64,000 nucleotides of DNA from Candidatus Nanopelagicales bacterium (GCA_009694585.1 SHUQ01000001.1:7815-71814), one strand, 5' to 3'. Positions 18,012-64,000 are shown, numbered from the stretch's first letter. The notes: generated by a model from the sequence alone, not told the origin. Translations and numbers: made by a program.

Positions 18012-18974
18012 TTGCCAGCTGTGAGTGTTGCCGATGTTTTGGTGTTGCCACGTATTAGTGCACCTGATGTGACCGCAGTGGTGCGCCCGGTTAATCGCGT
18101 AGTCACCGCACTGGCCACTTTTGAGGGCGAAGGGTTTCCGGTTCGACGGCCCTTCCCGGGCCGCATGTCACTTCGTGACTCCGATCCGTTTTTGCTGCTG
18201 GATCAAATGGGTGCGGTCGAGTGGGGTGCGGGTGAGCCCAAAGGCACCCCTTGGCACCCACACCGCGGGTTTGAAACCGTCACTTACATAGTGGATGGCG
18301 CATTTGAACATCAGGACACTGCCGGCGGCGGTGGGCTCATCGCTGACGGCGCCACCCAGTGGATGACCGCTGGTTCGGGCCTGCTCCATATTGAAACTCC
18401 ACCGGAGGCCTTGGTCAGTTCTGGTGGGCTCTTTCACGGAGTGCAGCTATGGGTGAATTTGCCGGCGGCATTGAAGATGACGGCGCCTCGGTATCAAGAT
18501 ATTTCCGCGTCTTCGGTCGCTTTGGCGGCAAGCCACGACGGCGGCGCATTGGTTCGCATCATTGCCGGTGAGCTCGGTGGGATTTTTGGCCCTGGCATCA
18601 CTTGGACTCCAATTACCTATGCGCACGCGACCGTGCAGCCCGGGGCCAAAATTTCGCTCCCGTGGAACCGAAGTTTCAATGCCATGGTCTACGCCCTATC
18701 GGGTAAAGGTTTCGCCGGAGTTGAAAATGTCGAGTTTGGCGAAGGCCAGTTGGTCGACTTTGGCGCGGGTGATGCGATCACTTTCGCGGCTGATACCAAA
18801 CAGGATTCAAAGTCGCCGACCCTTGAAGTTCTCCTCCTCGGTGGCCAGCCGATTCGTGAGCCGATCGCGCACCATGGCCCGTTCGTGATGAATACCAAGG
18901 ACGAGATCATTACGGCTATGGAAGACTTCCAGTCAGGTCGGATGGGGCAGATTCCGGCGACCGCACGTCGCTAG
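18012..18974 (+). CDS. Pirin family protein
   Basis: 320 aa with the cupin metal motif HPHRGFETVTYIVDG and a second cupin half. Confidence 0.9.
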   Translation: MPAVSVADVLVLPRISAPDVTAVVRPVNRVVTALATFEGEGFPVRRPFPGRMSLRDSDPFLLLDQMGAVEWGAGEPKGTPWHPHRGFETVTYIVDGAFEHQDTAGGGGLIADGATQWMTAGSGLLHIETPPEALVSSGGLFHGVQLWVNLPAALKMTAPRYQDISASSVALAASHDGGALVRIIAGELGGIFGPGITWTPITYAHATVQPGAKISLPWNRSFNAMVYALSGKGFAGVENVEFGEGQLVDFGAGDAITFAADTKQDSKSPTLEVLLLGGQPIREPIAHHGPFVMNTKDEIITAMEDFQSGRMGQIPATARR

Positions 18975-29008: not shown

Positions 29009-29423
29009 TTACCGCTCTGAGCCTGCGACTAGTTCCTCGGGCATCTCGGCGGTCGAGCGAGTGATCATCCAAATCACCACGGCGATCACCGGGCCAACCA
29101 AGGGCGCCAAGATTTTGAGCCAGACCTAGCCAAGGGCCCCCCACCGGCAAATAGAACTGGACCAAATGAGGGGACCGGGTTCGCCGACGTGCCGGGTCAA
29201 GAGCACCTCGAGCAAGAACGCACCGGCCATATCAATATTGTCAGCGGGCTCAAGATACCGGGCCGAATGCGGAGGCAACGCCAACAACCCCATTACCGGG
29301 CCCGCCACCGTCTTCTCCAACTTTGGCTGCGACGCTAAATATCGAAGCGCCTACTGCCAAGAAGACCAGCAAGAAAGTTCCTAGGAACTCTTCGACGAGT
29401 TTGCGAGACAGGGAGGTGGCCAT
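29009..29423 (-). pseudogene. Decayed MIP/aquaporin-family channel gene
   Basis: AAGGAG RBS plus ATG 29423 gives MATSLSRKLVEEFLGTFLLVFLAVGA (MIP N-terminus). The sense then hops frames twice: AGAFLLEVLLT, then VWLKILAPLVGPVIAVVIWMI (MIP C-terminus) to stop 29009-29011. About 415 bp remain, versus ~700 bp expected, and I saw no intact NPA boxes. Confidence 0.55.
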
Positions 29424-29562
29424 GGCTCTCCTTAATGCGAGGTCATTGCCTTCTTGGGCGGAAAGTCTTTGGTCTGAGCCCAAGGGGTGATTTGGGGCGC
29501 CGGTGCCGCCCAGACTCAGCCCAGATGGGGGACACGACCAGTGGACCTGAGAGGCTTGGCAC

Positions 29563-30855
29563 ATGTCTCGTACCCTGACCGTGGCCCTACTCGGTGGTGG
29601 CACCGTTGGCGCCCAAGTGGCCCGACTGATTGATACCAGTGCTGCGGATTTGGAGCACCGGGTGGGTGCGCCGGTGGTGTTAACCGCGGTTGCTGTGCGA
29701 GACACCACCAAAGCACGGCCGGGTATTCCCCCTGAATTGATCACCGGTGATGCGATGGCGGTAGCCACCAGTGGCGCTGACATCGTGGTCGAACTCATGG
29801 GCGGCGTCGAGCCGGCCCGATCACTTATCTTGGCGGCGATGGCAGCGGGGTCAAGTGTGGTGACCGCGAATAAGGCGTTGCTGGCCGCTGATGGCGCGAC
29901 TTTGCATGCGGCGGCGGCTAACTATGGAGTCGATCTCTACTTCGAGGCTTCGGTGGCCGGTGCTATCCCATTACTGCGCCCGCTTCGTGAGTCCTTAGCG
30001 GGTGACCGTGTTACTAAAGTCATGGGCATCGTCAATGGCACCACCAACTTCATGCTGACCAAGATGGATGAAGAAGGCGCTGACTATGACGAGGTATTTG
30101 CTGAAGCCGATGCACTCGGCTATCTGGAAGCCGATCCAACACTTGATATCGATGGGCATGATGCCGCGGCTAAAGCAGCGATCCTGGCCGAATTGGCCTT
30201 CCACACCAAGGTCACCCTTGACGATGTCTATTGCGAGGGGATCTCAAAAGTCACCTCGGCCGACATTATCGCTGCGCAGCAAATGGGTTTTGTGATCAAG
30301 TTACTTGCGGTTGCCGAAATTAAGGGCGATAACGAAGGCGTGATTGTTCGGGTGCACCCCTCAATGGTGCCGCGCGATCATCCATTGGCAAGTGTGCGTG
30401 GGACCTTCAACGCGGTATTTATTGAAGCGGAATCAGCGGGTCAAATGATGTTCTACGGCCGAGGTGCCGGGGGAGCGCCAACGGCCAGTGCGGTACTTGG
30501 TGATGTCGTTGCTGCCGCTCGCAATCGCCTGACGGGTGGACGGGGCCCTGGGCAAAGTACGTATGCGAACCTCGAGCCACTACCAATAGGTGCGGCAATG
30601 ACTCGCTACTACGTTAACCTTGATGTGACCGATCGCCCCGGCGTACTCGCTACCATCGCAGCGGCGTTCTCCGATAACGGCGTGAGCATTCAGGTGGTTC
30701 GTCAAGATGGTCATGGCGACGAAGCCGGTTTACTCGTGAGAACGCATCTGGCAAGTGATGCGGCATTGCGGGCCACCGTCGATCAACTTCGCGAACTTGA
30801 GACGGTCAAGCGTGTGGTTGGGGTAATGCGTGTCGAAGGTGAGGCCGGAGTTTAA
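29563..30855 (+). CDS. hom: Homoserine dehydrogenase
   Basis: 430 aa. N-terminal GGGTVG Rossmann motif, catalytic domain and C-terminal ACT domain. Confidence 0.95.
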
Positions 30856-50884: not shown

Positions 50885-52927
50885 GTGACCGGGCCTCGCT
50901 ATCCTTATGGGGTGCCCACTGCCATGGATCAATCGCGTGCCAAGGACAAGCCGTGGCTGATCCGGACTTATGCCGGTCACTCCTCGCCTAGTGAATCCAA
51001 TGCCCTGTACCGGCGGAACTTGGCCAAAGGACAGACCGGACTGTCGGTGGCTTTTGATCTGCCCACCCAAACCGGGTACGACCCAGATTCACCGATGGCC
51101 CTCGGCGAGGTTGGCAAAGTCGGGGTGCCGATTGCTCACCTAGGCAATATGCGAGCGTTGCTGGAGGCGATTCCGCTCGACAAAATGAATACCTCAATGA
51201 CCATCAACGCCACCGCGATGTGGATGCTGGCGTTATATGTGGTGGCCGCTGAAGATACTGGGGTACCCGCCAACCTATTGCAGGGTACGACCCAGAACGA
51301 CATCATCAAGGAGTACCTGTCGCGCGGAACATATGTGTTCCCCCCCGAGCCATCCCTTCGGTTGATCACTGACATGGTCACTTATACTGTGAAGAATATT
51401 CCGAAATGGAATCCGATCAACATTTGTAGCTACCACCTACAAGAGGCCGGAGCGACTCCGGTTCAGGAAATTGCCTACGCCATGAGCACCGCGATCGCGG
51501 TGCTCGATGCGGTGCGCGACAGCGGTCAGGTAGATCCTGCTGACTTTGGTGATGTGGTAGCGCGAATGTCCTTCTTTGTCAATGCCGGCGTGCGTTTCGT
51601 TGAAGAAATGTGCAAGATGCGCGCTTTCGTGGAGATTTGGGATCGCATTACCTTGACGAGATACGGTGTTCAGAACCCAGATCAGCGAAGGTTCAGGTAC
51701 GGGGTGCAAGTTAACTCACTGGGTTTAACTGAAGCGCAACCTGAGAACAATGTGCAACGAATAGTTCTTGAGATGCTCGCTGTGACGATGTCAAAGGATG
51801 CAAGGGCGCGCGCGATTCAACTCCCAACCTGGAATGAGGCGTTAGGGTTGCCGCGCGCCTGGGATCAGCAGTGGTCACTTCGCATTCAGCAAGTACTTGC
51901 CTTCGAGAGCGATCTACTGGAGTACGAGGATCTCTTCACCGGCTCTGTGGTCATTGAAAGAATTGTCAACGAAATGATTGCCGAAGCCACCACTGAACTC
52001 GACTATGTGCTCGAGCTAGGGGGTGCGGTCGCGGCGGTCGAGAGTGGATATATGAAACAGCAGATGGTGCAGGCTCACTCCCAGCGGCGCACTCGTATTG
52101 AATCTGGTGAACAAATCGTCGTAGGAGTAAATGCTTTCCAGGAAAGTGAAGCTAATCCGCTGCTTGCTGATCTAGATGCTGCCGTGCTCGTGGTAGATCC
52201 CGAGGTTGAAGCCCAGGCAATTGCAGACCTTAAATCGTGGCGGGCTGCACGTGATCACGAGCAGGTTGCTAAGGCTCTGGCGCAACTGCATGAACAGGCC
52301 AAGACTTCCGTGAACCTCATGAAAGCGACTATCGAATGTGTTCGTGTAGGTGTTACCACCGGCGAGTGGACGTCCACACTGCGCGACGTATTCGGCGAAT
52401 ATCGGGCACCTACAGGTATCGGTGGGGTGGTCGGGGCATCCAGTTCTGATCTGGACGAGGTGCGCCGTGCGGTTGCAATTACCTCGGATGAATGTGGTTC
52501 ACCACTTCGTTTGCTGGTTGGCAAGCCTGGCTTAGATGGACACTCCAATGGTGCCGAGCAAATCGCGGTCCGCGCCCGTGATGCGGGATTCGAAGTTATC
52601 TATCAAGGCATCAGATTGACCCCGGAGCAGATCGTGGCGGCGGCAGTTGCCGAGGATGTGGATGTAGTGGGCCTGTCAATTCTCTCCGGATCACATCGGG
52701 CCTTGGTGCCGGCGGTGGTAGATGGGCTGCGTGCCCGCGGCCTAACTGAGGTGCCCGTGGTGGTCGGTGGCATCATTCCGGACGCCGATGCCACTTGGTT
52801 GCGTGAGCGCGGGGTGGCCGAGGTATTTACTCCTAAGGATTACGACGCGACCGTCATCATGCGGAGCATTGTTGACACGGTGCGTGCCGCCAAATCAATG
52901 CCACCCTTGCCAAGTCCGTGCGCATAG
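50885..52927 (+). CDS. Adenosylcobalamin-dependent acyl-CoA mutase, single-chain (MeaA/ethylmalonyl-CoA-mutase-like)
   Basis: 680 aa. [15 protein letters not shown]...[22 protein letters not shown] resembles MeaA as I recall it. The C-terminal B12 domain has DxHxxG (LDGHSNG). Substrate not assignable. Confidence 0.8.
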
Positions 52928-53004
52928 TCATTGCCCGCTGCACCGTCAACTATGTCGGTCGCTTAAAAGCGCACCTCCCCGCAGCCGTTCGGGTGATCAT
53001 GATC
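52918..53004 (+). pseudogene. nucS: nucS (EndoMS) 5' fragment, first 29 codons only
   Basis: GTG 52918 (overlapping the mutase stop) gives [29 protein letters not shown]. This is the conserved NucS N-terminus. Similarity ends abruptly at ~53004-53007. Confidence 0.8.
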
Positions 53005-53007
53005 CAA

Positions 53008-53151
53008 TTGAGCGACCCACCCGAACCTCGCTCGGAGATCACAGTTCCAAGACCTGCGAGGGAGGTGCCGCGATGACTATCACGATCCTCAATTCCTTCT
53101 TCGGGGTCGCGGTCCTGATCCTCTCGGCGGCTGGCCTTGTTGTCGTCTTCG
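53008..53151 (+). repeat. Inverted-repeat arm A: orphan copy of the permease RBS plus first 79 nt
   Basis: Exact reverse complement of 58460-58603, checked by hand at 144/144 nt. Contains GAGGGAGG and an ATG at 53073 encoding [26 protein letters not shown]. Confidence 0.95.
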
Positions 53152-53634
53152 ATCACCATGACGTCGCTGCAGTTCAACGGCAAATGCTGCCGCATCCCGA
53201 GAACGTACGGCGTAGTGAAGCTCATAGTCAGCACCCTGAACCTTCAGCTGCGCAGCCATCGACATCAACGGGGTCACGCCGATCCCGCCAGCCAGCAGCA
53301 CAGAACACTTGGATTCCGAGACCAGGTGAAAGTCATTTCTCGGGTCCGAGACCTGCAGCGAATCGCCCGGGCTAAGACCGTGCATGAATTGAGATCCGCC
53401 ATTGCTGATTTCTTGCTGGCGCACGGCGAGTCGGTACTCCGATTGGTCCGGCGGTCAGACTTCAGTCACGAGCGAGTAGCACCGCGTCGTGCCGTCAGGA
53501 ATTGCAATTCGCACATGGGATCCGGGGGTGAATCTCGGGAGTGCCGTGCGAGTCGCACGAGCGAGAGTCAACTCTCGAACGCCTGGAGCGATGAGTTGAC
53601 TGTCGATCACGACCAACTGCAAACTCATCGACAT
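53152..53634 (-). pseudogene. PDR/VanB-type FMN-NAD ferredoxin reductase, nonsense-interrupted and 3'-truncated
   Basis: GGAG plus ATG 53634 gives MSMSLQLVVID...GSHVRIAIPDGTTRCYSLVTEV, then an in-frame TGA (53455-53457). It continues PPDQSEYRLAVRQQEISNGGSQFMH...VLLAGGIGVTPLMSM...ELHYAVRSRDAAAFAVELQRRHGD and ends at the repeat boundary 53151/53152. The rest of the NAD domain and the 2Fe-2S domain are absent. Confidence 0.7.
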
Positions 53635-53652
53635 TCTTGGCTCCACATCCAT

Positions 53653-53684
53653 ATTCTATGACATTTCATATATTAATCGTCAAG
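53653..53684 (-). promoter_or_regulatory. Candidate promoter/operator (site 1 of a shared motif) upstream of the reductase relic
   Basis: Minus strand: TTGACG, AT-rich spacer containing ATATATGA, then TAGAAT. Shares TATGAC-N3-TCATATATT-N3/4-GTCAAG with 59937-59963. Confidence 0.45.
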
Positions 53685-53729
53685 TTTCTTGCAACCTGCA
53701 GGGCCGTCCTGAGACCTCGCGGTGCAACG

Positions 53730-55043
53730 TCAGGACAAGCGGCAATCAAGGGGCAATCTCGGCGATGCCACGAGGCGCTCAACGGCGGATCCCACGTGCA
53801 GCACGGCCGACTCTCCGTAGTGTCGACCAATGATTTGCAGGCCCACCGGCATCTGATCACCTGACCTCTGGCACGGAACGCTCATCGCCGGTAATCCAAT
53901 GATCGAAGCCGGGACATTGAGTCCAAGCAACGCCGGGACCACCGGAACATCCCCTTGAGGGAGCGCAACCACAGTGTCGGTCGACAAGGGCGCCACACAT
54001 GGAAGCGTCGGGGCAGTCACGACATCAACATGTCGAGTTGCTTCGATCCACGAGCGGGCGATGGCAGCACGGATCCTTTGAGCGCGGATGTACTGGCGCG
54101 CAGGGCGCAACGCTCCCACCTCGAGATATGACCGCACCTCGTCTGAATACATGTCCGCTTTCGCCGGATACCACTCCCGATGGGCGTCCAGACTCTCCGG
54201 CAGGTTGACGGCGAAGGCCACAGCAACCGCGTATTCAAGCAAGGGAATGTGCACAGGCACGAGGACCGCTCCCGCTTCCTCAAGTGCCGACAACGAGTCT
54301 CGGACAGCGTTCTCGACCTCGGGATCAACGTTGTCGAAGAAGTAGTTCGTCGGGACTCCGATGCGAACACCTGCAACATCCTTGGCGAGATCGCGTGCGT
54401 AATCTTCAGCTCGATCCGATATGACCGACAGCACATCCGCCACATCGGCGACCGTTCGGCAGATGGGACCTACGGCGTCAAAGCTCCAGGCCATCGTCAC
54501 TACACCCGTCACCGGCACGAGACCGTGCGTCGGACGCAACCCGACCACTCCGCAACAGGCAGCAGGGATACGCACTGAACCCAACGTGTCAGTCCCCAGT
54601 GAGAGGTCGCAGTAGCCTGCGGCCACAACTGCGGCGGACCCTCCACTTGAACCACCAACTACTCGATCGAGATCGATGGGGTTGTTCGTCTCAGGGGTCG
54701 TCACACCAAAGGCAAATTCGTGGGTTCGAGCCTTTCCGATGAGGATGGCTCCCGCCCGGCTCATTCGATCGACCGCGACCGCATCGGTGTCAGGAATCCG
54801 CCCTTCTAGGACCTTAGAGCCCGCACTTGTTTCGATGCCCGCGGTATCGAAGAGATCCTTTGCCGCCCAGAGCCGGCCCTCAAGTCGCCGAGACCTCCCT
54901 ATGCTTACCGCATCATCTGACGCGCCCGCCTCCGACATGGCGCGGGTTAGGCATGTCCTGGCAAAGGCCGAGACCAGTGGCTCTCGCTCCTTGATGGACA
55001 CCTCACTTCTCGCAACAGCCGCAGCGGCCGAGATACCCGTCAC
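53730..55043 (-). CDS. Amidase-signature enzyme (AtzE/GatA-like)
   Basis: 437 aa. Catalytic Lys region LIGKARTHEF, GGSSGGSAA, GTDTLGSVRIPAACCG. Its GTG start overlaps the TGA of the upstream 67-aa ORF (GTGA). Confidence 0.9.
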   Translation of the reverse strand: MTGISAAAAVARSEVSIKEREPLVSAFARTCLTRAMSEAGASDDAVSIGRSRRLEGRLWAAKDLFDTAGIETSAGSKVLEGRIPDTDAVAVDRMSRAGAILIGKARTHEFAFGVTTPETNNPIDLDRVVGGSSGGSAAVVAAGYCDLSLGTDTLGSVRIPAACCGVVGLRPTHGLVPVTGVVTMAWSFDAVGPICRTVADVADVLSVISDRAEDYARDLAKDVAGVRIGVPTNYFFDNVDPEVENAVRDSLSALEEAGAVLVPVHIPLLEYAVAVAFAVNLPESLDAHREWYPAKADMYSDEVRSYLEVGALRPARQYIRAQRIRAAIARSWIEATRHVDVVTAPTLPCVAPLSTDTVVALPQGDVPVVPALLGLNVPASIIGLPAMSVPCQRSGDQMPVGLQIIGRHYGESAVLHVGSAVERLVASPRLPLDCRLS

Positions 55044-55243
55044 GACGTCTCTCCATAGCGAGCGACCGGCGGCGCAGACAGCAGGAGCAGTGATTCCGGG
55101 AAGTCGTCTATGGCATCGAACATGCCGCGGAACGTGGCGTCGATTGCAGCGATCACTTCGGCTCGCTCGCCCGGAGGCAGATGTACTCCCGCCGACTCAG
55201 CAATCACCACAACCTCCTCGCTTGTGAACTCACGGGACGTCAT
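55040..55243 (-). CDS. 67-aa acidic protein, candidate AtzG/GatC-like amidase partner
   Basis: MTSREFTSEEVVVIAESAGVHLPPGERAEVIAAIDATFRGMFDAIDDFPE... Preceded by GGAAGGAG and translationally coupled to the amidase. Size and position match AtzG-type subunits. Homology not verified. Confidence 0.55.
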   Translation of the reverse strand: MTSREFTSEEVVVIAESAGVHLPPGERAEVIAAIDATFRGMFDAIDDFPESLLLLSAPPVARYGETS

Positions 55244-55255
55244 ATTTGCTCCTTC

Positions 55256-55945
55256 CTAGAGAACGAGATGTCTTTCGATTTGTTCCCGCGATGAGCCAGT
55301 GACCGGGCCCGCCTCGACAACCCGCCCGCTCGACATGACGATGAAGTCATGCGCAAGGGGAAGGGCGTAGTTCAAGTGCTGTTCCACAAGGAGGATGCTC
55401 AAGCCTCTGCTGCTCGCACGTCTGACCGCCTCTTGGAACATTCCGAGCAGGCCCGGCTGAACGCCCTCGACGATCTCGTCGAGAATCGCTACACGGGAGG
55501 CGTTCGCCAATGTTCGAACGGCAATGAGCATCTTCTGCTCACCGCCGCTGAGCGTCCCCGCCTTTTGTGTCATGCGCTCGCGAATCCGCGGAAAGCAGTT
55601 GAGCATCGCTTCCTCCTCTCTATTGTCACCGCCCTGTCGAGCCAATTTGAGGTTCGTTTCAACGGTCAGGTCCGAGAAAATCGAACGTTCCTGCGCGGCA
55701 TAGCCGACCCCCGCCCTGACGATCACATGGGTTCGCTTTCCGCTGATCGGTTCGCCATCAAGAAGCACTCGCCCACAAGAAAGCGGGAGATAGCCCATGA
55801 TCCCCCTCAAGAGCGTCGTCTTCCCGACTCCGTTCCGGCCGAAGATTGCCACGATCTGACCGGGCTCGACTGATAGCGAGACATCAGTAACCACCTGGGT
55901 GGTGCCATAGCCCGTGCCGAGATGCTCCACCTCCAGTCCCGTCAT
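55256..55945 (-). CDS. ABC transporter ATP-binding protein (LivF/UrtE-like)
   Basis: 229 aa. Walker A GRNGVGKTT, signature LSGGEQKM, Walker B ILDE. ATGA overlap with the upstream gene. Confidence 0.9.
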   Translation of the reverse strand: MTGLEVEHLGTGYGTTQVVTDVSLSVEPGQIVAIFGRNGVGKTTLLRGIMGYLPLSCGRVLLDGEPISGKRTHVIVRAGVGYAAQERSIFSDLTVETNLKLARQGGDNREEEAMLNCFPRIRERMTQKAGTLSGGEQKMLIAVRTLANASRVAILDEIVEGVQPGLLGMFQEAVRRASSRGLSILLVEQHLNYALPLAHDFIVMSSGRVVEAGPVTGSSREQIERHLVL

Positions 55946-57714
55946 CCTCCCTCCCCCAGGTAGAGGTCGCGAACCTTGCGATCCTCGCTTACCTCCGAGA
56001 CCGTGCCATCTGCAATGAGGGCTCCCTGATCGAGGACGAGAATGCGATCGGCAATGCTTCGCACGAAGTCGAAGTCATGTTCAACGATCAAAACCGCAGC
56101 ACCACTTCTCGCGAGGTAGACGAGCACCTGCCCGATAGCTGCGCGGTCAGCGGACTCCATTCCCGCCGTAGGTTCGTCGAGTAGGACGACCTGGGACTGC
56201 GAGCCGAGGACCATGCATACCTCGAGGAACTGCTTCTGCCCGTGAGCCAAACTGCCGGCGTCGTCATTGAGCCGTGCGAGTAGACCGTGCTGCCGCGCAA
56301 GCGACATGACATCTTCTGGGATCGGGAGGCATTGATCGCGAACCAGCCAATCCCTCATTCGCAACTTGGGGTCACGCGCTCCGATGAACAGGTTGTCAGC
56401 GACTGACAGGCTCTCGAACACACGCGGATTTTGAAACTTGCGCTTCACTCCAAGTCGCGCGACCTTCCAGATCGGTATCCCGAGCATCTCTTTGCCCACG
56501 AGGATCGCCTTGCCGTGCGCATCGGAGAGTGCTCCGCTCAGGAATGCGATCAGTGTCGACTTTCCTGCGCCATTCGGCCCGATCAAGGCAGTCACGTGGC
56601 CGAAGTCGAAGGACACTCGATCAACGTCGAGTGCAGTGAAGGAACCGAATCGCTGGATAAGCTTTTCGCCTACGAATGCCGGGCCCTCTGGGTGCGAAGA
56701 CGAGGCGACTGCGGGCTCGAGTTGCAGAGGCCTAGGCGCATTGAGTCTGGAACCAAGGACTCGGATCGGCCAATAGAGCCCGTCCGGCAGGAACATCACG
56801 ACGATGATGAAGATCAAAGCTAGAAGGATCTGCCAGTAGTCAAGGAAGATTCCACTCAACTCGTTGCTCACCATATTCACAAGCAGAGCACCAAATGCAG
56901 CTGCTGCCAGTGAGTTTCTCCCCCCGATGGCGCACCAGAGCACGATGAAAGTGGAGAACGCAAAGCCGATTCTGTCCGGAGCCGCGATCTGGGAATAGAG
57001 TGCGTCGAGCACGCCTGCGAAGGCCGTCACGATGGCACCGAGGACAAAAACCCTGCGCTGTACGAGTTCGGCGTTCGTTCCGAAGAACCGTATTCTCATC
57101 GAGTCGTCGCGCACGCTTGCAATAACGCGGCCAAGGTTGCTGCGCGTTATCACCGCCATGCCGAGCAGCAACATGGCGAACACCACAAAGCCGATGTAAT
57201 AGCTCAGCAGGGGATCCTTCGGAAGCACCCGATCTAACGGGATGCCATTTTGACCACCCGTTACGGACGTGAACTTCAACGCGAGTTGTTCAAACGCGAC
57301 CGCCGTGCAGAAGGTCATGACAGAAATCAGGAAAGCACCTGCCCGAACACCGAACGACACCCGAGCAAGGATCCATGCGAGCGCCCCGGCCGCCGCGCAG
57401 CCGATGAAGATGCCGGCAACGAGCCCTGGAGCTACAGGGTACGACTCGATCCCCTTGGCAGCGGCATACGCACCAAGCCCAAAGAATGCCGCCTGTCCAA
57501 GGGCCAAGATTCCGCAGTAGCCCCACACGAGTGCCAACGCGCTGGCCGCCATCGCGTACGGGAAATAGGAGGCCAGACTGGAGACTCTGTACGAGTCCAG
57601 CAGGAACGGACAGGCTGCCAAAATGATGAGCAGGCACACCGGATCGCGCCACCACGGCGAGTTGAGGATCGGTACTGCCGAAGCGAACGACCAACCGTTC
57701 AACGCGTTCTTCAC
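55942..57714 (-). CDS. Fused ABC permease (LivM/UrtC-like) and ATPase (LivG/UrtD-like)
   Basis: 590 aa. An N-terminal ~330-aa polytopic permease, then Walker A GPNGAGKST, signature-region LAHGQKQFLE, Walker B LLDEP. Confidence 0.9.
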   Translation of the reverse strand: MKNALNGWSFASAVPILNSPWWRDPVCLLIILAACPFLLDSYRVSSLASYFPYAMAASALALVWGYCGILALGQAAFFGLGAYAAAKGIESYPVAPGLVAGIFIGCAAAGALAWILARVSFGVRAGAFLISVMTFCTAVAFEQLALKFTSVTGGQNGIPLDRVLPKDPLLSYYIGFVVFAMLLLGMAVITRSNLGRVIASVRDDSMRIRFFGTNAELVQRRVFVLGAIVTAFAGVLDALYSQIAAPDRIGFAFSTFIVLWCAIGGRNSLAAAAFGALLVNMVSNELSGIFLDYWQILLALIFIIVVMFLPDGLYWPIRVLGSRLNAPRPLQLEPAVASSSHPEGPAFVGEKLIQRFGSFTALDVDRVSFDFGHVTALIGPNGAGKSTLIAFLSGALSDAHGKAILVGKEMLGIPIWKVARLGVKRKFQNPRVFESLSVADNLFIGARDPKLRMRDWLVRDQCLPIPEDVMSLARQHGLLARLNDDAGSLAHGQKQFLEVCMVLGSQSQVVLLDEPTAGMESADRAAIGQVLVYLARSGAAVLIVEHDFDFVRSIADRILVLDQGALIADGTVSEVSEDRKVRDLYLGEGG

Positions 57715-58538
57715 CGACCTGACCTACTATCCTTGATCTTCATGGCAATCATGGCAACGACGAGCACCGCGATACTTGCGGTCGTAGCATCCGCGATCGT
57801 GGCAAATATCCCGCCAGTTCCGCCCAGAAGTCCAGCAGCCGGACCAATACCCAGCAACGTTGGGCCAGCGAGAATCGTTGTGAGGAAGCCACCGACAAGG
57901 AAGTTTCCGCCCATGGTGGGAGCGATGGTGACCATGGGAGCAAGCAGTGCACCAGCGACACCTGCTAGGAGCCACCCTGTCCCGAAACTCAAGGCGTACA
58001 CTCGATCTACGTTAATCCCAATGCCCCGTGCAAGGTCGGGATCACTGATGACCGCCCGCACTGTTTTACCCAGCGACGTGAACCGCTCGATGACCCACAT
58101 TGCGGTGAGGAGCACAGCAGCAAAGGCGATGATGAAGAGTCGGTAGGCGCTGAAATCACTGCCGAGGATGCTCACTGGGGCATCGAAGGGGGCATCCAAC
58201 GAGCTGTACCCGGGGTCGAATGCACCGATGAGCTCACGGATAAGCAAGCCCAGCCCCCACGTCGCGAGGATGGTGTCGAGAATTCGTCGATAGAGCCGCC
58301 GGATGAGGAGTCGCTCGATTACCACGCCAAGGACACCAATACCGATCCCGGCCACAACAATGCCCAGCCAGAACGGCATCCAGTCCCTCGCGATGAGAGC
58401 GACGTAGGCACCAAGCATCATGGCTTCACCGTGTGCGAAGTTCACGACCTTCATGAGACCGAAGACGACAACAAGGCCAGCCGCCGAGAGGATCAGGACC
58501 GCGACCCCGAAGAAGGAATTGAGGATCGTGATAGTCAT
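57711..58538 (-). CDS. ABC permease (LivH/UrtB-like)
   Basis: ATG 58538 is preceded by GAGGGAGG. The 29-codon upstream extension in the track ORF is rejected. Polytopic, overlaps the next gene by 4 nt. Confidence 0.9.
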   Translation of the reverse strand: MTITILNSFFGVAVLILSAAGLVVVFGLMKVVNFAHGEAMMLGAYVALIARDWMPFWLGIVVAGIGIGVLGVVIERLLIRRLYRRILDTILATWGLGLLIRELIGAFDPGYSSLDAPFDAPVSILGSDFSAYRLFIIAFAAVLLTAMWVIERFTSLGKTVRAVISDPDLARGIGINVDRVYALSFGTGWLLAGVAGALLAPMVTIAPTMGGNFLVGGFLTTILAGPTLLGIGPAAGLLGGTGGIFATIADATTASIAVLVVAMIAMKIKDSRSGR

Positions 58539-58603
58539 CGCGGCACCTCCCTCGCAGGTCTTGGAACTGTGATCTCCGAGCGAGGTTCGGGTGGGTCGCT
58601 CAA
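58460..58603 (-). repeat. Inverted-repeat arm B (native permease start region)
   Basis: Identical to the reverse complement of 53008-53151. Spans 65 nt of the SBP-permease intergenic region plus the first 79 nt of the permease gene. Confidence 0.95.
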
Positions 58604-58653
58604 CTCGGCGTCCCACCCGAACCATCTCACTTCAGTCTTACGCGGTCAGTGCC

Positions 58654-59901
58654 TTAGAACGAGCACTGCTCCCCGGGTGATACATCCGGGAACGCCTTCA
58701 CGAGTGAGTACGTACCGGTTTCGTCAGCGACAAGGAGATGCATCGTGGCGGTTGCATGGTGCGTCTTCGCATCGATTGTGAGTGCTCCACGCGGAGAGTC
58801 AGGGAGTTGGATACCAGCCAGCGCCTTGATCAATGCAGATGCCTCGGTCGTGCCTGCTGCGTTGGCTGCCTTGGCGAGGGCCTGAATACCGTCGTAGGTC
58901 GCCTCAGTCAGCGTATTCTGAGAGAAGGCATCTGGATTCGCGGCCTTGTAGGCAGCAATCATCGCCTTGTTCGCCGGAGTATCAACCCCGGCAAAGTAGC
59001 CGAATCCGCCGTAAATGCCCGCTGCTGCTGCACCAAGCGCCTGAGCGTAGTCATCGGTCATCGTCAACGAAAGTTGCTTCGTTGACTTGTCCATGCCTGA
59101 TTGACGCCAGTTCTTCACGAACGCACCGAAATCACCACCGACGAGGCCCGTAACGATTGAGTCCGCGCCTGCGTCCTGCGCCTTCTTGAGGATTGCGCCG
59201 AAGTCCGAGGTACCGAACGGAACGAGCTCTTGACCCACGACCTTGCCGCCAGCAGACTCGATTGACTTCTGTGCCAGCGGGAACACCGTCTGCGGCCATA
59301 CATAGTCGTGACCGATGAAGAAAACCTTCTTGGCGCCGACATCCGTGACGAAGCTCTTGTAGATCGGGTCGTACTGCGCAGGAACCTCTCCGATGACGAA
59401 CATGTTTGGCAGACAGGCACCCCCCTCGTAAAGGGTCGTGTAGACAAAGGGAATCCCAGACTCTTCAACCTGACTGATGAAGCCCTCGCGAGTCGCGCTG
59501 TCCGTCATCGCGACAAGTGCGTTCACGCCATCCTGCTCTAGGAGCTTGCTCACAGCCTTGGCACCGGTCGTCGGATTAGATCCATCATCAGCAATGATGA
59601 TCTCAATCGGCTGACCATTGACACCCCCGAGATCGTTGATCTGCTTCATTGCAAGTTCGACAGTCGCCTGTACCGGCGGGCCATAGATTGCCGCAGGCCC
59701 AGTCAACGAGGTAACCACGCCTACTTTCAGTGGAGCCGATGGCGCCATTGACGCGGGCGCCATTGACGCGCTGGTAGCAGTCTCCGGTTGGCTCGCTGCT
59801 GTTGACGCCGACTCTGTTCCTGACGTACTTCCTGAGCTGCACGCTGCTAAGAGCATGCCCGCGGCGACCGTAGCAACCGCAAATGTGTTTCGCTTAAGCA
59901 T
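58654..59901 (-). CDS. Lipoprotein substrate-binding protein, AmiC/UrtA-like (amide/urea-binding branch of the Liv family)
   Basis: ATG 59901 after GGAGGA gives MLKRNTFAVATVAAGMLLAAC (lipobox). The core FVYTTLYEGGACLPNMF, FFIGHDYVWPQ, GVDTPANKAMI parallels AmiC motifs (YPTLYEGFE..PN, FIGSDYIYP, SIDTPASRAF) as I recall them. Confidence 0.8.
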   Translation of the reverse strand: MLKRNTFAVATVAAGMLLAACSSGSTSGTESASTAASQPETATSASMAPASMAPSAPLKVGVVTSLTGPAAIYGPPVQATVELAMKQINDLGGVNGQPIEIIIADDGSNPTTGAKAVSKLLEQDGVNALVAMTDSATREGFISQVEESGIPFVYTTLYEGGACLPNMFVIGEVPAQYDPIYKSFVTDVGAKKVFFIGHDYVWPQTVFPLAQKSIESAGGKVVGQELVPFGTSDFGAILKKAQDAGADSIVTGLVGGDFGAFVKNWRQSGMDKSTKQLSLTMTDDYAQALGAAAAGIYGGFGYFAGVDTPANKAMIAAYKAANPDAFSQNTLTEATYDGIQALAKAANAAGTTEASALIKALAGIQLPDSPRGALTIDAKTHHATATMHLLVADETGTYSLVKAFPDVSPGEQCSF

Positions 59902-59932
59902 GTAATTCCTCCAAGTGGAATAGGGTTGACAA

Positions 59933-59963
59933 AGTGTATGACTTCTCATATATTTCTGTCAAG
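59933..59963 (-). promoter_or_regulatory. Candidate promoter/operator (site 2 of the shared motif) for the transporter-amidase operon
   Basis: Minus strand: TTGACA, 18-nt AT-rich spacer with ATATATGA, then TACACT, ~30 nt upstream of the SBP ATG. Lies in the divergent region with the MarR gene. Palindrome CTGAGgcttCTCAG at 59971-59984. Confidence 0.45.
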
Positions 59964-60026
59964 GACTTTTCTGAGGCTTCTCAGGAGTTGAATTCATGCC
60001 AAGTACGCTAACGTTTTCCGAACACG

Positions 60027-60518
60027 ATGACCGGCAAACGGGGTTGGAGATCGGTTTCCATGGCCGAAGAAGCATTCGTCCCCGGATATCTCCTGTATCT
60101 GTTGACGGCGTCAAGTCAGGCCGCAAGCGGTCAATTCCACAGCTTCGTGAAGTCTCAGGGCCTTCGTGTTCCCGAGTGGCGAATACTTGCCTGCTTGCGG
60201 GACGCAGACGGTCAGATGATCACCGAGCTCTCGCGCAATGCACTGTTCGAGCAGTCCCATCTCACGAAGACCGTCAACCAGATGGAGGCACGAAGGCTCG
60301 TCACACGCAAGACAGACTCGCACGATCTGAGGCGCGTTCGAATTTGGCTCACGAGTCGTGGTCGCAAGCTGGCCGATCAACTGGTCACCGAAGCACGCGA
60401 GCACGAAGCGAAGCTTCTCGGCTCAATGTCAACATCGGATGCCCAGCGAATCAAGCCGGCACTGCGCTCACTTCTCGACCTGCTGAGCGAAGCCGACGTC
60501 GACATCGACATCGCATAG
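60027..60518 (+). CDS. MarR family transcriptional regulator
   Basis: 163 aa (or start at ATG 60060). Winged-helix core ITELSRNALFEQSHLTKTVNQMEARRLVTRKTDSHDLRRVRIWLTSRG. Confidence 0.85.
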   Translation: MTGKRGWRSVSMAEEAFVPGYLLYLLTASSQAASGQFHSFVKSQGLRVPEWRILACLRDADGQMITELSRNALFEQSHLTKTVNQMEARRLVTRKTDSHDLRRVRIWLTSRGRKLADQLVTEAREHEAKLLGSMSTSDAQRIKPALRSLLDLLSEADVDIDIA

Positions 60519-60567
60519 CGTCCACGAGCGGCCGAGGCATTAGCTGCGCCTGCCTCAAAGGTTTCGA

Positions 60568-61884
60568 ATGACTATGTGGGCGCCTCATGCTGAGGGAACG
60601 CCGTGGTCACACCTCGATGAACAGAACACAGCTGCATTGATTCGTCAACTGAGCTACGTCAACGAAAACTCAGCCTTCTACCGGGTGAAATGGCAAAAAG
60701 CCGGCATCGATGTGAAGTTGGTGCGGACGCTTGGAGATCTCCGCGAATTCCCCTTCACCGAGAAAGATGAACTCCGATTCGATCAGGTGACGAACGGTGG
60801 CCTTGGGTCTTATGCATGCGCAAGCCTTACCGAAACGATTCGAATTCACTCCTCGAGCGGCACAACCGGTCGCCCAAGTTTCATTGGCGTCACACGCGAA
60901 GACGCAGCGATCTGGACTGAGTCCCTGACACGAGTCTTCACCTGCATGGGCGTCACCGAAGACGACGTATTTCTTCATGCAACCGGACTCAGTTTCTTCG
61001 TAGGCGGACTCCCGGTCAAGGATGCCATTGAAGGGATCGGTGCGGCCTTCGTCCCGATCGGCACTGGAGCATCCGATCGACTCGTTCAGGCGAACGACGC
61101 GCTCGGCGGAACAGTCTTGTTCTGCACACCTTCATATGCGCGCTACTTAGCGGACTACATGCAACAGCGACTCGGGCGCGATGCGCGTTCACTCGGATTG
61201 CGGAGAGTCCTTCTTGGCGCTGAGCCAGGCGGCGGCGTGCGGGCAATCCGCGAGGGAATCGAAGCGGCCTTCGGATGCCACGTACGCGAGGCGTACGGCA
61301 ATAGCGATCTCCTGCCGGCATTCGCTGCGACGTGCGATGCTCAAGGCGGCAATCACCTGCTCACACCTGACCTGCTCTACCTAGAAGTGATCGACCCGGA
61401 CTCAGGCGAGGTCCTGCCATGGGAAACCGGAGTACAGGGTGAACTCGTCGGGACGAGCCTTCGACGGTGGTCCGCTCCCTTGGTTCGATTCCGGACACGC
61501 GATCACGTTGTCGTGAATACTCAGCCCTGCGAGTGCGGTCGATCCGGTCCGCGCATCCTGTGCGTCGGTCGCACCGACGACATGCTTATCGTCTCCGGCG
61601 TAAACATCTGGCCGAGCGCAATCGCCGACGTCGTGGAGACATTCGTTCCTAGAGTGACGGGCGCACTCCGTGTCATTGTCAACGGCTATGGACCAGCAGT
61701 ACCCCCGCCTCTCCATATTCGCGTTGAGCGCGCAGGAGACATTGACGAACAACTCGGGGACGAAATCGCCTTGGCGATCCGCGAACGACTTCAAGTCAAG
61801 GCGGCCATCGAACTCGTCCCGATGAACTCCATCCCCCGCTCGGAGATGAAGACCTCACTTATCGACAGGATTTTCCCATCATGA
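60568..61884 (+). CDS. PaaK-like adenylate-forming CoA ligase (phenylacetate-CoA ligase family)
   Basis: 438 aa. IHSSSGTTGRPSF, YGNSD and GRTDDMLIVSGVNIWP motifs. Substrate unknown. Confidence 0.85.
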   Translation: MTMWAPHAEGTPWSHLDEQNTAALIRQLSYVNENSAFYRVKWQKAGIDVKLVRTLGDLREFPFTEKDELRFDQVTNGGLGSYACASLTETIRIHSSSGTTGRPSFIGVTREDAAIWTESLTRVFTCMGVTEDDVFLHATGLSFFVGGLPVKDAIEGIGAAFVPIGTGASDRLVQANDALGGTVLFCTPSYARYLADYMQQRLGRDARSLGLRRVLLGAEPGGGVRAIREGIEAAFGCHVREAYGNSDLLPAFAATCDAQGGNHLLTPDLLYLEVIDPDSGEVLPWETGVQGELVGTSLRRWSAPLVRFRTRDHVVVNTQPCECGRSGPRILCVGRTDDMLIVSGVNIWPSAIADVVETFVPRVTGALRVIVNGYGPAVPPPLHIRVERAGDIDEQLGDEIALAIRERLQVKAAIELVPMNSIPRSEMKTSLIDRIFPS

Positions 61885-63059
61885 CTGGTCGAGCATTTCA
61901 TGAGACCTACATTGACCTTCGTGAATCATGGACCTCGCCATTCGTTCGGTGGCAGGGGGAACTTCAATCGGTGAACAGCCTTGATCTAGCCGCCATCGTC
62001 ACGGCGCGGGCCCTGGAACATCGTGCGATCGACCCGGCCGACTTTGACGAGGTCATCCTCGGCTGGACCGTGCCGCAGCGCCAGGGGTTCTACGGCGCTC
62101 CCACCCTCGCTGCACGTATTGGGGCGCCAACCACATCCGGCCCAATGATCTCCCAAGCGTGCGCGACGTCTGTCGCATGTCTCGTTGCCGCAGGTGCAAA
62201 CAATGAGAGTCGGGCTGCCCTGGTCGTCACAACTGACCGGACAAGTAATGGCCCGCTGCTTATCTATCCCCAACCCTCGGCTACGGGCGGTGCGCCCGAG
62301 CAGGAGACCTGGGTGCTCGACAACTTCGCGCGCGACCCGTGGGGCGGGTCATCCATGGCCGAGGCCGCTGATGCCGTCGCTCACGAAGAGGCGATCAGTC
62401 GCGAAGAGATCGACGACGTCACAATCCTCAGGCACGAGCAGTATGCCCTTGCGCTTGACGACGATCGAGCGTTCCATCGGCGCTACATGGTGGAGGCCGC
62501 ATTCACCGATCGCCGGGGAGATCACCGGGTGAGCGCTGACGCGGGAATCTACGCCCTCGATCCGGGGCGGACCCGCGCCTTGGTGGCTAGCGTTGATGGT
62601 GGCGTCGTCACCCGTGACACCCAGACTCACCCTGCGGACGGTTGCGCTGGCGTCGTCGTGCGGCATGGAGTTCCATCCCGGGGGCCGACGATTCGAATCC
62701 TCGCAGCGGGCTTCTCACGCGTTCAACGAGCACGGATGCCGAGGGCAGTGGTGCCTGCAGCGCTGTGTGCCTTGAGTGCGGCGGCGCTCAACATCCAAGA
62801 CATGAATCAAGTGAACACCCACAATCCATTTGCCGTCAGCGATGCGTACTTCAGTCGGGAAACGGGATTTTCATCCGAAGCCATGAACTGCTTCGGGTCG
62901 CCGCTCGTCTACGGCCATCCTCAAGCACCCACGGGCATGCGTGCTGTCATTGAACTGGCGCACTCATTGGCCCAACGAGGCGGTGGCCTCGGACTCTTCA
63001 CTGGATGCGCGGCTGGTGACACAGCGGGTGCACTCGTTATCGAGGTGACAGGCTCGTAG
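61881..63059 (+). CDS. Thiolase-like protein with atypical active-site motifs
   Basis: 392 aa. ATGA overlap with the ligase gene. Nucleophile Cys in ISQACATS. HNPFA replaces the usual NEAFA. GHPQAPTG, GCAAGDTAG. Confidence 0.75.
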   Translation: MTGRAFHETYIDLRESWTSPFVRWQGELQSVNSLDLAAIVTARALEHRAIDPADFDEVILGWTVPQRQGFYGAPTLAARIGAPTTSGPMISQACATSVACLVAAGANNESRAALVVTTDRTSNGPLLIYPQPSATGGAPEQETWVLDNFARDPWGGSSMAEAADAVAHEEAISREEIDDVTILRHEQYALALDDDRAFHRRYMVEAAFTDRRGDHRVSADAGIYALDPGRTRALVASVDGGVVTRDTQTHPADGCAGVVVRHGVPSRGPTIRILAAGFSRVQRARMPRAVVPAALCALSAAALNIQDMNQVNTHNPFAVSDAYFSRETGFSSEAMNCFGSPLVYGHPQAPTGMRAVIELAHSLAQRGGGLGLFTGCAAGDTAGALVIEVTGS

Positions 63060-63264
63060 ATCGAATGCGCGTTCACGTCGCCTGTGAGACCTTCACTCAG
63101 AACCCCATGACACGGCGTCTCGCCCAACTCGGTGCTTGGGCTGGTCAGGTCAAATGCAGATGTCCACCCGGGCCACCTATGAGCGCGGAGCCAGGTTCGA
63201 AGGGGATTCGGGCATGCGCTGGTGCAAGGCGGCTTAGGGTGCCCGGCTCAAGTGTAAAAGATTC

Positions 63265-63293
63265 TTGACATACATTTAGCATTCACCTACCTT
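63265..63293 (+). promoter_or_regulatory. Candidate promoter of the truncated HTH gene
   Basis: TTGACA (63265-63270), 17-nt spacer, TACCTT (63288-63293), only 3-6 nt before GTG/ATG 63297/63300 (near-leaderless). Confidence 0.35.
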
Positions 63294-63296
63294 GGC

Positions 63297-63420
63297 GTGA
63301 TGGAACTCGCGGAGTTGGGGGCCACGATTCGCCGCACCCGTCTCGCCAGCGGGATTAGCCAGGCGCAGATGGCACGCATGGTGGGCGTTTCACGAGCCAC
63401 GATCAACTACGCCGAGACGG
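63297..63420 (+). pseudogene. Truncated XRE/HipB-like helix-turn-helix gene (first ~41 codons only)
   Basis: [42 protein letters not shown] is a complete HTH. The frame then runs out-of-frame through nucS sequence (the 113-aa track ORF is chimeric). Confidence 0.6.
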
Positions 63421-63421
63421 G

Positions 63422-63817
63422 GGCGTTGATCTGGGCCTGCAAAAGGACGGCGTTGAGGCCCGCCTGCAGGCGCTGCTGGCCACCCATGTGGGGGTGCTGG
63501 GCGCCGATTGGACACTCATCCGCCGGGAGTACCCCACCGCCATTGGGCCGGTTGATCTGCTCTGCAGGGATGGCGCTGGGGCCACGGTGGCCGTCGAAAT
63601 TAAGCGGCGCGGTGAAATCGACGGGGTCGAGCAATTAACCCGGTATTTGGCCTTGTTAAACCGAGATCCGCTGCTCGCGCCGGTGCAGGGGGTATTTGCG
63701 GCGCAGGAGATCAAACCACAGGCGCGCACCTTGGCGCAGGATCGAGGGATCAGGTGCGTGGTATTGGATTACGACTACCTGTTGGGCACCGCCGATCCAA
63801 GTCTTCGACTGTTTTGA
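63422..63817 (+). pseudogene. nucS: nucS (EndoMS) 3' fragment: linker plus RecB-like nuclease domain
   Basis: [82 protein letters not shown]...[29 protein letters not shown] closely matches the C-terminal half of mycobacterial NucS as I recall it. Confidence 0.85.
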
Positions 63818-63837
63818 CCAACTGACAGAATCCACCT

Positions 63838-64000
63838 ATGAGCGAAGCCCCCATGAGCAATTCTTCAACCACAGCCATTCCTGTTGCCATCACCCGAGTT
63901 GGTGTTATTGGTTTAGGCACCATGGGGGCTGGTATAGCCGAGGTTGTGGCCCGCAGTGGGGTACGGGTTTGGGCGGTCGAAACAACCGAAGCCGACCTCG
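63838..64000 (+). CDS. 3-hydroxyacyl-CoA dehydrogenase (N-terminal part, runs off the window end)
   Basis: MSEAPMSNSSTTAIPVAITRVGVIGLGTMGAGIAEVVARSG is the NAD-binding GxGxxG N-terminus typical of Hbd/FadB-type enzymes. Confidence 0.75.
   Translation, partial: MSEAPMSNSSTTAIPVAITRVGVIGLGTMGAGIAEVVARSGVRVWAVETTEADL

Follow-up and report, generated by a model that had tools for sequence, protein, structure and literature searches.

To our knowledge, NucS (EndoMS) is the only post-replicative mismatch repair system known in most Actinobacteria, and purifying selection on the gene is normally strong. For MutS/MutL, mismatch repair is known to be lost in nature and its loci are known to carry foreign DNA, as in the mutS/mutL-deficient natural mutators and the enterobacterial mutS-rpoS region, where the repair locus coincides with horizontally acquired DNA. 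Such a loss is expected to lower the barrier that keeps diverged DNA from recombining. For nucS, engineered and clinical variants are known, and a limited literature search found no report of natural insertional inactivation of the gene. In the present work, we examine a stretch of 64,000 nucleotides (nt) from Candidatus Nanopelagicales bacterium (GCA_009694585.1 SHUQ01000001.1:7815-71814), called the window below, in which nucS is split into two remnants by an insertion of about 10.4 kb. We will argue that the middle of the gene was replaced by a horizontally acquired piece of a catabolic gene cluster, and we will weigh the proposal, put forward in an original prediction made from the window alone, that the organism is a natural NucS-null mutator.

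Three reports describe strong, transition-biased mutator phenotypes upon nucS loss in Mycobacterium smegmatis, Streptomyces coelicolor, Corynebacterium glutamicum and Mycobacterium abscessus (PMC5290159, PMC7015689, PMC9769700). In Mycobacterium tuberculosis, on the other hand, deletion of nucS changes the mutation spectrum and hardly the rate (PMC12892979), which means that a NucS-null organism is not automatically a mutator.

The first 29 codons of nucS in the window match positions 5-33 of the 100 in the Pfam NucS_N profile (E=7.8e-9). Beyond codon 29 the open reading frame (ORF) enters unrelated sequence, and it ends after 23 codons of the insert at a stop at 53074-53076 (translation of 52918-53160). 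The gene resumes in a frame that is open from 63422 to the terminal ...DPSLRLF and its stop codon, with an in-frame stop upstream at 63356-63358 (translation of 63350-63817). This 3' remnant matches NucS_C over positions 1-107 of 124 (E=1e-36), contains the nuclease motifs PVDLL...VEIKRR (the D...ExK region) and ends with the same residues as its relatives; gene callers give it as an ORF of 109 amino acids (aa) from a GTG at 63488. The two fragments are 10,417 nt apart, and this DNA stands in place of 201 nt of nucS, i.e. 67 codons (30-96) that make up most of the N-terminal domain. No continuous ORF contains both domains: the C-terminal RecB-like nuclease domain is present, and the full N-terminal PH-like/beta-barrel domain, with the dimerisation surface and the pocket for the mismatched base, is absent. 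The start of a truncated XRE-family regulator gene at 63297/63300 runs into the nucS 3' part in another frame. The original prediction had described such a split, with 60-70 codons missing and neither fragment fused in frame to anything. Translations, Pfam matches and six colinear relatives bear out the split, the alignment to the relatives gives 67 missing codons, and no functional fusion exists, since the N-terminal part stops within the insert and the XRE start is out of frame. The predicted left junction near 53004 is correct in position, but it turns out to be composite, with a 149-nt inverted duplicate.

The six relatives aligned to the window (L001, L002 and L086-L089) belong to sister lineages with ~80-82% nt identity. 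L001 and L002 are loci of close metagenome-assembled genomes (MAGs), found by scanning species-representative genomes with the nucS C-terminal fragment (best match 92% aa identity); further sister loci were obtained via the protein database (L086-L088 from three runs, L089, and L096-L105 from one NCBI MAG and nine runs). An uninterrupted 227-aa nucS stands at this place in 6/6 aligned relatives, and all six alignments to the window break at 53001-53004 and pick up at 63422. The DNA of L001/L002 is colinear with positions 48000-53001/53004 and 63422-64000 at 79-80% identity, and the nucS segment that has no counterpart in the window amounts to 201 nt in L086, L089 and L001 and to 204 nt in L002. 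The nucS start overlaps the stop of the preceding mutase gene in L001/L002, just as it does in the window.

The order common to the sister loci is atpC, cobalamin adenosyltransferase, murA, a small ORF, mutase, nucS, a hydroxyacyl-CoA dehydrogenase of 576-604 aa, a 284-aa ORF and a hydrolase. The orthologous position of nucS (mutase-nucS-hbd) is shared with L001, L002, L086-L089 and L096-L105, and intact nucS in the same synteny is found in six sister lineages from >15 datasets. The uninterrupted meaA-like/nucS/hbd order, which had been named as the arrangement to look for in relatives, is present in all sister lineages compared, and none of them is split. These comparisons show the ancestral order, namely atpC - cobalamin adenosyltransferase - murA - small ORF - acyl-CoA mutase - nucS - hbd.

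A split of this kind could also be an assembly or binning chimera. Metagenome assemblies are sometimes chimeric, and contigs of this organism end at a 147-nt repeat within the insert. However, exact-protein look-up in independent assemblies gave further contigs that belong to this organism (nt identity 99.8-100%), and the same junctions occur in separate Logan runs. The left junction is spanned by L082 (Logan, SRR31412735; 99.96% identity), which ends 30 nt into the 147-nt repeat. The right junction is spanned by L083 (SRR31412735), L084 (SRR12053441) and L085 (SRR8561390) at 99.8-99.97% identity, each with the order thiolase, 109-aa NucS_C ORF, hbd. The gene order and spacing agree also in the ENA assembly ERZ1305449, in which one contig runs from the mutase to the amidase and the ATPase, and three contigs run from the thiolase through NucS_C to hbd. 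One of the runs, SRR8561390, is a winter metagenome from Lake Baikal at 1250 m (PMC7678222). The junctions are thus reproduced in three runs on the right, in one run on the left, and on both sides by gene order in one ENA assembly, which removes the chimera objection named in the original prediction.

The same explanation can take the form of a bona fide mobile element (insertion sequence, transposon, integrative and conjugative element or prophage). However, the Pfam and NCBIfam searches revealed no transposase, integrase or recombinase gene among the ORFs of the insert, all of which are assigned to metabolic or regulatory families except a 67-aa ORF, and no tRNA gene was found at the insert. 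The repeat search and the alignments of the joints gave no terminal repeats, inverted repeats included, and no target-site duplication at the insert ends; the target carries the 201-nt deletion instead, and the block ends inside genes. With these observations on both forms, we consider it extremely improbable that the split is a chimera or a mobile element. As specific identities, a transposon or integrative and conjugative element and a tRNA-associated island were both ruled out, by the ends inside genes and by the lack of mobility genes, terminal repeats and tRNA.

The search of 5.8 billion proteins with the nucS C-terminal fragment recovered the 109-aa truncated ORF and gave no full-length NucS above 94% aa identity. 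A species-specific 38-mer across the right junction had no match in the JGI metagenome scan. Every sampled member of the species appears to carry the broken nucS, and no intact conspecific allele is on record; the disrupted allele would have passed by inheritance to all of them. We therefore regard the structural account of the split locus, whose features are collected in Table 1, as secure with high confidence.

Table 1. Features of the split nucS locus and its flanks, in window positions.
Feature	Positions	Strand	Basis
Left flank: fused B12-dependent acyl-CoA mutase (MM_CoA_mutase + B12-binding; "meaA-like"), 667 aa as called	50924..52927	+	Pfam on identical contigs; stop overlaps nucS GTG; colinear in all sister loci
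nucS 5' remnant, codons 1-29	52918..53004	+	GTG start at 52918; alignment of relatives ends here
Filler: 147-149-nt inverted duplicate of the urtB/livH 5' region (58457-58605)	53006..53154	.	BLAST 99.3% over 147 nt; repeat search 99% complementary; 149-nt match to L093
Truncated reductase pseudogene (FAD/NAD/2Fe-2S type), codons 1-162 of 317, W60 TGG->TGA at 53455-53457	53148..53634	-	Codon-by-codon comparison with intact 317-aa L093 gene; weak FAD_binding_6 match
Amidase (amidase-signature; AtzE/indoleacetamide-hydrolase-like, below equivalog cut-offs)	53730..55043	-	Pfam Amidase E=1.2e-93; NCBIfam
Conserved 67-aa ORF between ATPase and amidase genes; also in L090, L091, L093	55040..55243	-	Gene calls; no family match
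ABC ATPase, UrtE/LivF-like	55256..55945	-	Pfam, NCBIfam
Fused ABC permease-ATPase, UrtC-UrtD/LivM-LivG-like	55942..57714	-	Pfam, NCBIfam
ABC permease, UrtB/LivH-like, 275 aa, start ATG 58538	57711..58538	-	Pfam, NCBIfam; 275-aa gene calls in L091/L093
Native copy of duplicated segment; copy boundary in 16-nt loop of 12-bp-stem palindrome	58457..58605	.	Repeat search, junction alignments
Periplasmic substrate-binding protein, UrtA/LivK-like	58654..59949	-	Peripla_BP_6 E=1.5e-86; NCBIfam
MarR-family regulator, divergent from transporter operon	60060..60518	+	Pfam MarR E=7.5e-9; gene calls
PaaK-like (phenylacetate-CoA ligase family) acyl-CoA ligase	60568..61884	+	AMP-binding + AMP-binding_C_2; best NCBIfam = PaaK models, below cut-off
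Thiolase-family protein (= NCBI MSO26502.1, MAG "Candidatus Nanopelagicales bacterium")	61881..63059	+	Pfam; protein database
5' fragment (~40 codons, helix-turn-helix) of XRE/HipB-like regulator gene, cut at right junction	63297..63419	+	HTH_31 E=8.4e-9, HTH_3; Y4mF/HipB-like
nucS 3' remnant, codons ~97-227 + stop	63422..63817	+	Translation, Pfam NucS_C, alignment of relatives
Right flank: start of 599-aa 3-hydroxyacyl-CoA dehydrogenase (hbd/fadB-like)	63853..64000	+	Gene calls in L083-L085 and sister loci; directly after nucS in all relatives

We now turn to the origin of the insert. Outside its own 90% cluster, the closest relatives of its thiolase have only 60% aa identity, compared with 92-94% for NucS in the sister species, and when JGI metagenomes were scanned with it, a single short contig (L106) was close and all other matches were at or below 57% identity. 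Much closer DNA is present in two groups of contigs, which carry two variant members of that 90% thiolase cluster. L093, L094 and L095 match window positions 53148-63328 at 96.1-96.3% nt identity, and L091 and L092 match positions 53148-63069 at 92%. In these five contigs the block is extended on the left by the complete 317-aa reductase gene and a Rieske oxygenase gene and on the right by unrelated genes, and nucS is not present. The protein look-up gave no sample overlap that would link the donor-like contigs to a sister species.

The block diverges from L093 in a mosaic way: ~1% of positions differ at either end, and in the ABC-transporter genes (55500-59000) the difference is 4-9%. This indicates recombination among cluster variants, before or after the transfer. 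At the right end, L093 continues differently from the window past the cut in the XRE gene. In the region 11420-11470 of L093 (and likewise in L094 and L095), the XRE/HipB-like gene has a 75-nt in-frame deletion of its helix-turn-helix, between two GCCACGAT direct repeats. The deleted segment is retained in the window (63329-63403), so that the block derives from a relative of L093 rather than from L093 itself.

The composition points in the same direction. The tetranucleotide correlation of the insert with the window core is r=0.785, to be compared with 0.954-0.982 for 17 core chunks of the same size and 0.957-0.975 for the sister loci. The correlation of the insert with the flank of L093 is 0.904, and that of the L093 flank with the window core is 0.784. 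The original prediction had treated the intervening 10.4 kb as accessory DNA, and this is confirmed by its absence from the sister loci, its composition and its 96-99% match to L093; as to the compositional contrast suggested for 53005-63421 against the flanks, the tetranucleotides are indeed foreign, but GC3 is barely different. Since the insert has no counterpart in the sisters, is 96-99% identical to L093 where the core relatives do not exceed 82% nt identity, and is foreign in composition, we favor horizontal acquisition; the block would then have come from an L093-like actinobacterial donor.

Another option considered was an intragenomic rearrangement, in which a block long resident in the genome moved into nucS. 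The GC content of the insert is close to that of the core, the block has no mobility genes, and the identical thiolase protein is seen nowhere but beside nucS, which means that the block is single-copy and fits a move better than a duplication. However, this scenario is difficult to reconcile with tetranucleotides that correlate at 0.785 with a core whose own chunks reach at least 0.954 and at 0.904 with the L093 flank. Also, the thiolase has no 60-90% homologue despite the well-sampled sister species, and the block is 96-99% identical to L093, whereas the core relatives are at most 82% identical at the nt level and NucS at most 94% at the aa level. An internal move is thus very unlikely.

To examine the mode of entry, the joints were compared with the sequence of a donor-like contig (L093) and of recipient-like ones (L086 and others). 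At joint A, nucS (...GTGATCATGATC) passes via CAA into an inverted copy of the urtB 5' region (TTGAGCG...), with at most 3 nt shared. This copy (53006/53008-53154) matches 58457-58603/58605 in reverse complement at 99%. Joint B, from the inverted copy to the reductase gene, lies at 53148-53154, where the bases in common are TTCG, then A/G, then TC. Joint C, from the XRE gene to nucS, lies within a run of G at ~63416-63421, beside a shared GGCGTT. The ends of the insert cut the reductase gene on the left and the XRE gene on the right, and the boundary of the 149-nt filler falls in the loop of a palindrome upstream of urtB. The target deletion, the genes cut at both ends, the microhomology of a few bases and the inverted templated filler argue for illegitimate recombination. 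A fragment would have been captured at a double-strand break in nucS, or a microhomology-mediated template switch would have occurred during repair; transposition, site-specific recombination and homologous recombination do not fit this anatomy.

Some features of the joints deserve mention in their own right. The palindrome is perfect, with a 12-bp stem GGTTCGGGTGGG...CCCACCCGAACC (58584-58595 / 58612-58623) and a 16-nt loop, and is located between the binding-protein and permease genes; a half-copy is found at 53008-53027. A nucS 9-mer, GTTCGGGTG (52987-52995), ~10 nt before joint A, equals one arm of the palindrome, for which a rough estimate of the chance match is ~1-2%. Joint A can accordingly fold into a 9-bp hairpin, which may have guided the recombination. 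The inverted copies could let the intervening 5.3 kb flip, and it is because of these two copies that short-read contigs break at the 147-nt repeat.

For the function of NucS, the decisive point is which part is missing. According to the alignment to 5GKE, the lost codons correspond to most of the EndoMS N-terminal domain, which is responsible for dimerisation and proper folding and provides the site for flipped mismatched bases (review PMC8228993). The nuclease remnant has only the internal GTG at 63488, without an evident ribosome-binding site in our reading of the sequence, and a scan of 62900-64000 gave no sigma-70 promoter. Since the N-terminal domain is gone, the nuclease domain has no proper start and the XRE start is out of frame, we take nucS to be a pseudogene here. 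The locus would no longer support NucS-dependent mismatch repair, which has likely been lost from this genome altogether.

The remnants have barely decayed, and the event would therefore be recent in terms of divergence (roughly <=1% by our estimate). Compared with 113 homologues, the 131 codons of the 3' remnant show only 2-3 unusual residues. One of them results from C->T at 63432 (CCG->CTG, P4L): the window has Leu, while L083, L085 and 113/113 homologues have Pro, the site thus being polymorphic within the species. A change at an invariant Pro fits relaxed constraint after the disruption.

Taken together, it is highly probable that the middle of nucS was replaced, in a recent event, by a horizontally acquired piece of a catabolic gene cluster through illegitimate recombination, and that nucS is now a pseudogene. 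Several points weigh against this account. The GC content (59.3% in the insert, 57.8% in the core) and GC3 (0.640 vs 0.611, p=0.045) differ little. The L093 flank in the composition comparison is only 4.2 kb long and is possibly accessory DNA itself, and the donor is represented only by contigs without assigned taxonomy. All NCBIfam matches of the cluster are below the curated cut-offs, and the substrate is not assignable from them. The orientation given to the 5.3 kb that separates the inverted copies comes from short-read assemblies, with the window and one ENA contig in agreement, and end-joining or template switching is inferred from the anatomy of the joints only. Finally, a second nucS or mutS/mutL may lie beyond the 64-kb window and the short contigs covered, and NucS has been reported in a variable genomic island of Planktophila, of the order Nanopelagicales (PMC12817590).

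The last two points lead to the possibility that mismatch repair was kept, with the disruption being silent because a second nucS (e.g. an island-borne one), another repair activity or the free C-terminal nuclease compensates. Besides the Planktophila island, this would agree with the lack of a mutator signature in the three comparisons given below, with the back-up mismatch repair proposed for M. tuberculosis (PMC12892979), and with the open frame and catalytic motifs of the C-terminal fragment. A free nuclease domain, however, would have to do without dimerisation, stability and the mismatch pocket, all of which come from the N-terminal domain (PMC8228993), and the GTG start of its 109-aa ORF lacks an evident ribosome-binding site. 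The mutated Pro in the window strain, invariant in the homologues, indicates relaxed constraint, and no second NucS above 94% identity was seen, in a search by which a divergent paralogue would not be recognisable as belonging to this genome. We consider it unlikely that repair was retained in this way.

Having a probable NucS loss at hand, we next consider its consequence for mutation. According to the original prediction, the lineage would be a natural NucS-null, transition-biased hypermutator, and this would also be the source of the gene relics in the window. It is true that nucS is destroyed at its only known locus, that the databases hold no intact conspecific allele, and that the laboratory losses cited above give strong transition-biased mutators. 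In addition, the reductase TGG->TGA and the nucS P4L (CCG->CTG) changes are both transitions. The substitution spectra, on the other hand, do not show the expected bias. Over 5,556 aligned core columns, the private substitutions of the window comprise 116 transitions and 63 transversions (ratio 1.84), i.e. 179 changes, to be compared with ratios of 1.22-2.85 in the nucS-intact sisters and 211 changes in the nearest of them. The distance of the window to the outgroups is not above that of the nearest sister, and its branch is not longer. For the insert, polarised with L091, the window branch has 88 transitions and 66 transversions and the L093 branch has 76 and 57, the ratio being 1.33 in both cases. 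Within the species, the 16 single-nucleotide polymorphisms (SNPs) consist of 12 transitions and 4 transversions (3.0) and are clustered, which suggests recombination imports; the sister species L086/L087/L088 have only 3-4 SNPs, a number too small for a control. Under a spectrum with transitions making up at least 95% of new mutations, 12 or fewer out of 16 would be unlikely (binomial P ~0.007, our own estimate), with the caveat that the clustered SNPs are possibly imports.

It is important to note that these tests are low in power, because the event is recent and most of the counted substitutions are older. By our estimate, they limit the divergence accrued since the event to a few tenths of a percent, which is compatible with a raised rate. 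With this limit, the three spectrum comparisons reveal neither a transition excess nor a longer branch, and the transition-biased mutator of the original prediction is not supported by them.

Of the relics, the one at 53152, taken earlier as a sign of genome decay, is the truncated reductase brought by the insertion and was produced by the truncation itself. The one at 17710 is genuine and counts in favor of the mutator reading: a fragment of a short-chain dehydrogenase/reductase gene at ~17713-17850 matches adh_short over positions 1-43 of 195, with an in-frame stop inside TGGxxGxG and nothing after it, and is located upstream of an intact pirin gene (18012-18974). At 7267 and 29009 the six-frame translation gave nothing recognisable. 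The ORF list shows a coding density that looks ordinary for the window. Together with the minimal effect on the rate of the M. tuberculosis deletion, these results make a natural hypermutator behind the relics of the window a doubtful, though not negligible, proposition. Two further observations concern other ORFs of the window. At 29253-29798, on the minus strand, a 182-aa ORF gives a weak partial match to the N-terminus of MIP/aquaporin (positions 5-51 of 222, below the cut-off), and may be another gene fragment near the relic proposed at 29009. At 3469-7238 a 391-aa ORF precedes the gene of an 864-aa SbcC/Rad50-like ATPase (AAA_23, SbcC_Walker_B); the two are probably an SbcCD pair, so that another DNA-end-processing system is intact in the window.

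The acquired genes suggest what the lineage has likely gained, namely a predicted pathway for amide uptake and hydrolysis, followed by CoA activation of the resulting (aryl)acetate-type acid. This module is supported by the contig L090, in which the same genes form one operon with PaaX. L090 (Logan ERR14822393) is colinear at 66% nt identity and comprises PaaX, the binding protein, permeases, ATPases, a 66-aa ORF, the amidase, the PaaK-like ligase and the thiolase; the PaaX regulator hints at a phenylacetate-related amide as the substrate of the module. In the insert the non-coding space amounts to <250 nt per gap. The intact homologue of the truncated reductase in L093 has DmmA-like_N/NAD_binding_1/Fer2 domains. 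The longest ORF in the regulator region, 59996-60571 (191 aa; GC2 0.62, GC3 0.47; no family match), is probably spurious and is overlapped by the real MarR frame 60060-60518.

A wild population with a broken nucS offers a ready test, outside the laboratory, of hypermutation and relaxed recombination barriers, or alternatively of back-up repair. In addition, the locus is a clean and fully resolved case in which metabolic DNA from outside was acquired without the machinery of a mobile element. A more far-reaching idea, which we consider rather improbable, is that this free-living, deep-lake species persists with nucS destroyed in all sampled populations and no transition signature, either owing to back-up correction or because mismatch repair was lost recently. 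If this were true, with no second nucS or mutS/mutL, the organism would have an unknown back-up mismatch correction or, if caught just after the loss, would show in nature what becomes of a NucS-null lineage in the long term. A relaxed recombination barrier might in that case have helped the mosaic foreign block to establish.

Compared with the characterized NucS/EndoMS proteins (5GKE, 2VLD), both fragments are unambiguously NucS, the C-terminal part being 92-94% identical to the intact NucS of the sisters. The conserved position after the atp operon, between mutase and hbd, is kept, and so are the nuclease motif region and the C-terminus. The difference is that the locus is split, lacks 67 codons of the N-terminal domain and has its remnants 10.4 kb apart, and it would not be a functional member of the family. 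With the laboratory nucS deletion mutators and the natural nucS polymorphisms of M. tuberculosis it has in common that NucS is lost in an actinobacterium presumably devoid of MutS/MutL. In contrast to the laboratory deletions and point mutations, the present case is a natural null that arose by DNA capture in a free-living lake bacterium and recurs in all its sampled datasets, and the transition-biased signature of the laboratory mutators is not detectable here. The difference from the mutS-rpoS region is that another repair system is concerned, that the gene itself is the integration point, and that the sampled datasets do not show the allele as a minority variant.

As to the event, illegitimate integration with filler, whether by non-homologous end joining, microhomology or template switching, shares with this locus the microhomology, the target deletion (here 201 nt), the gene truncation at both ends, the inverted templated segment and the boundary in a hairpin loop; the mechanism is here read from the joint sequences. 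The cargo resembles the amide/(aryl)acetamide clusters that combine an Urt/Liv ABC transporter, an amidase, a PaaK-like ligase and a thiolase with PaaX or MarR, i.e. the gene set of L090 (the PaaX operon) and of L091 and L093 (with Rieske oxygenase and reductase). Compared with the L091 and L093 clusters, the insert has no oxygenase and its reductase is a stub. We classify the event as the well-documented pseudogenisation of a gene by illegitimate capture of foreign DNA, and not as a new kind of system.

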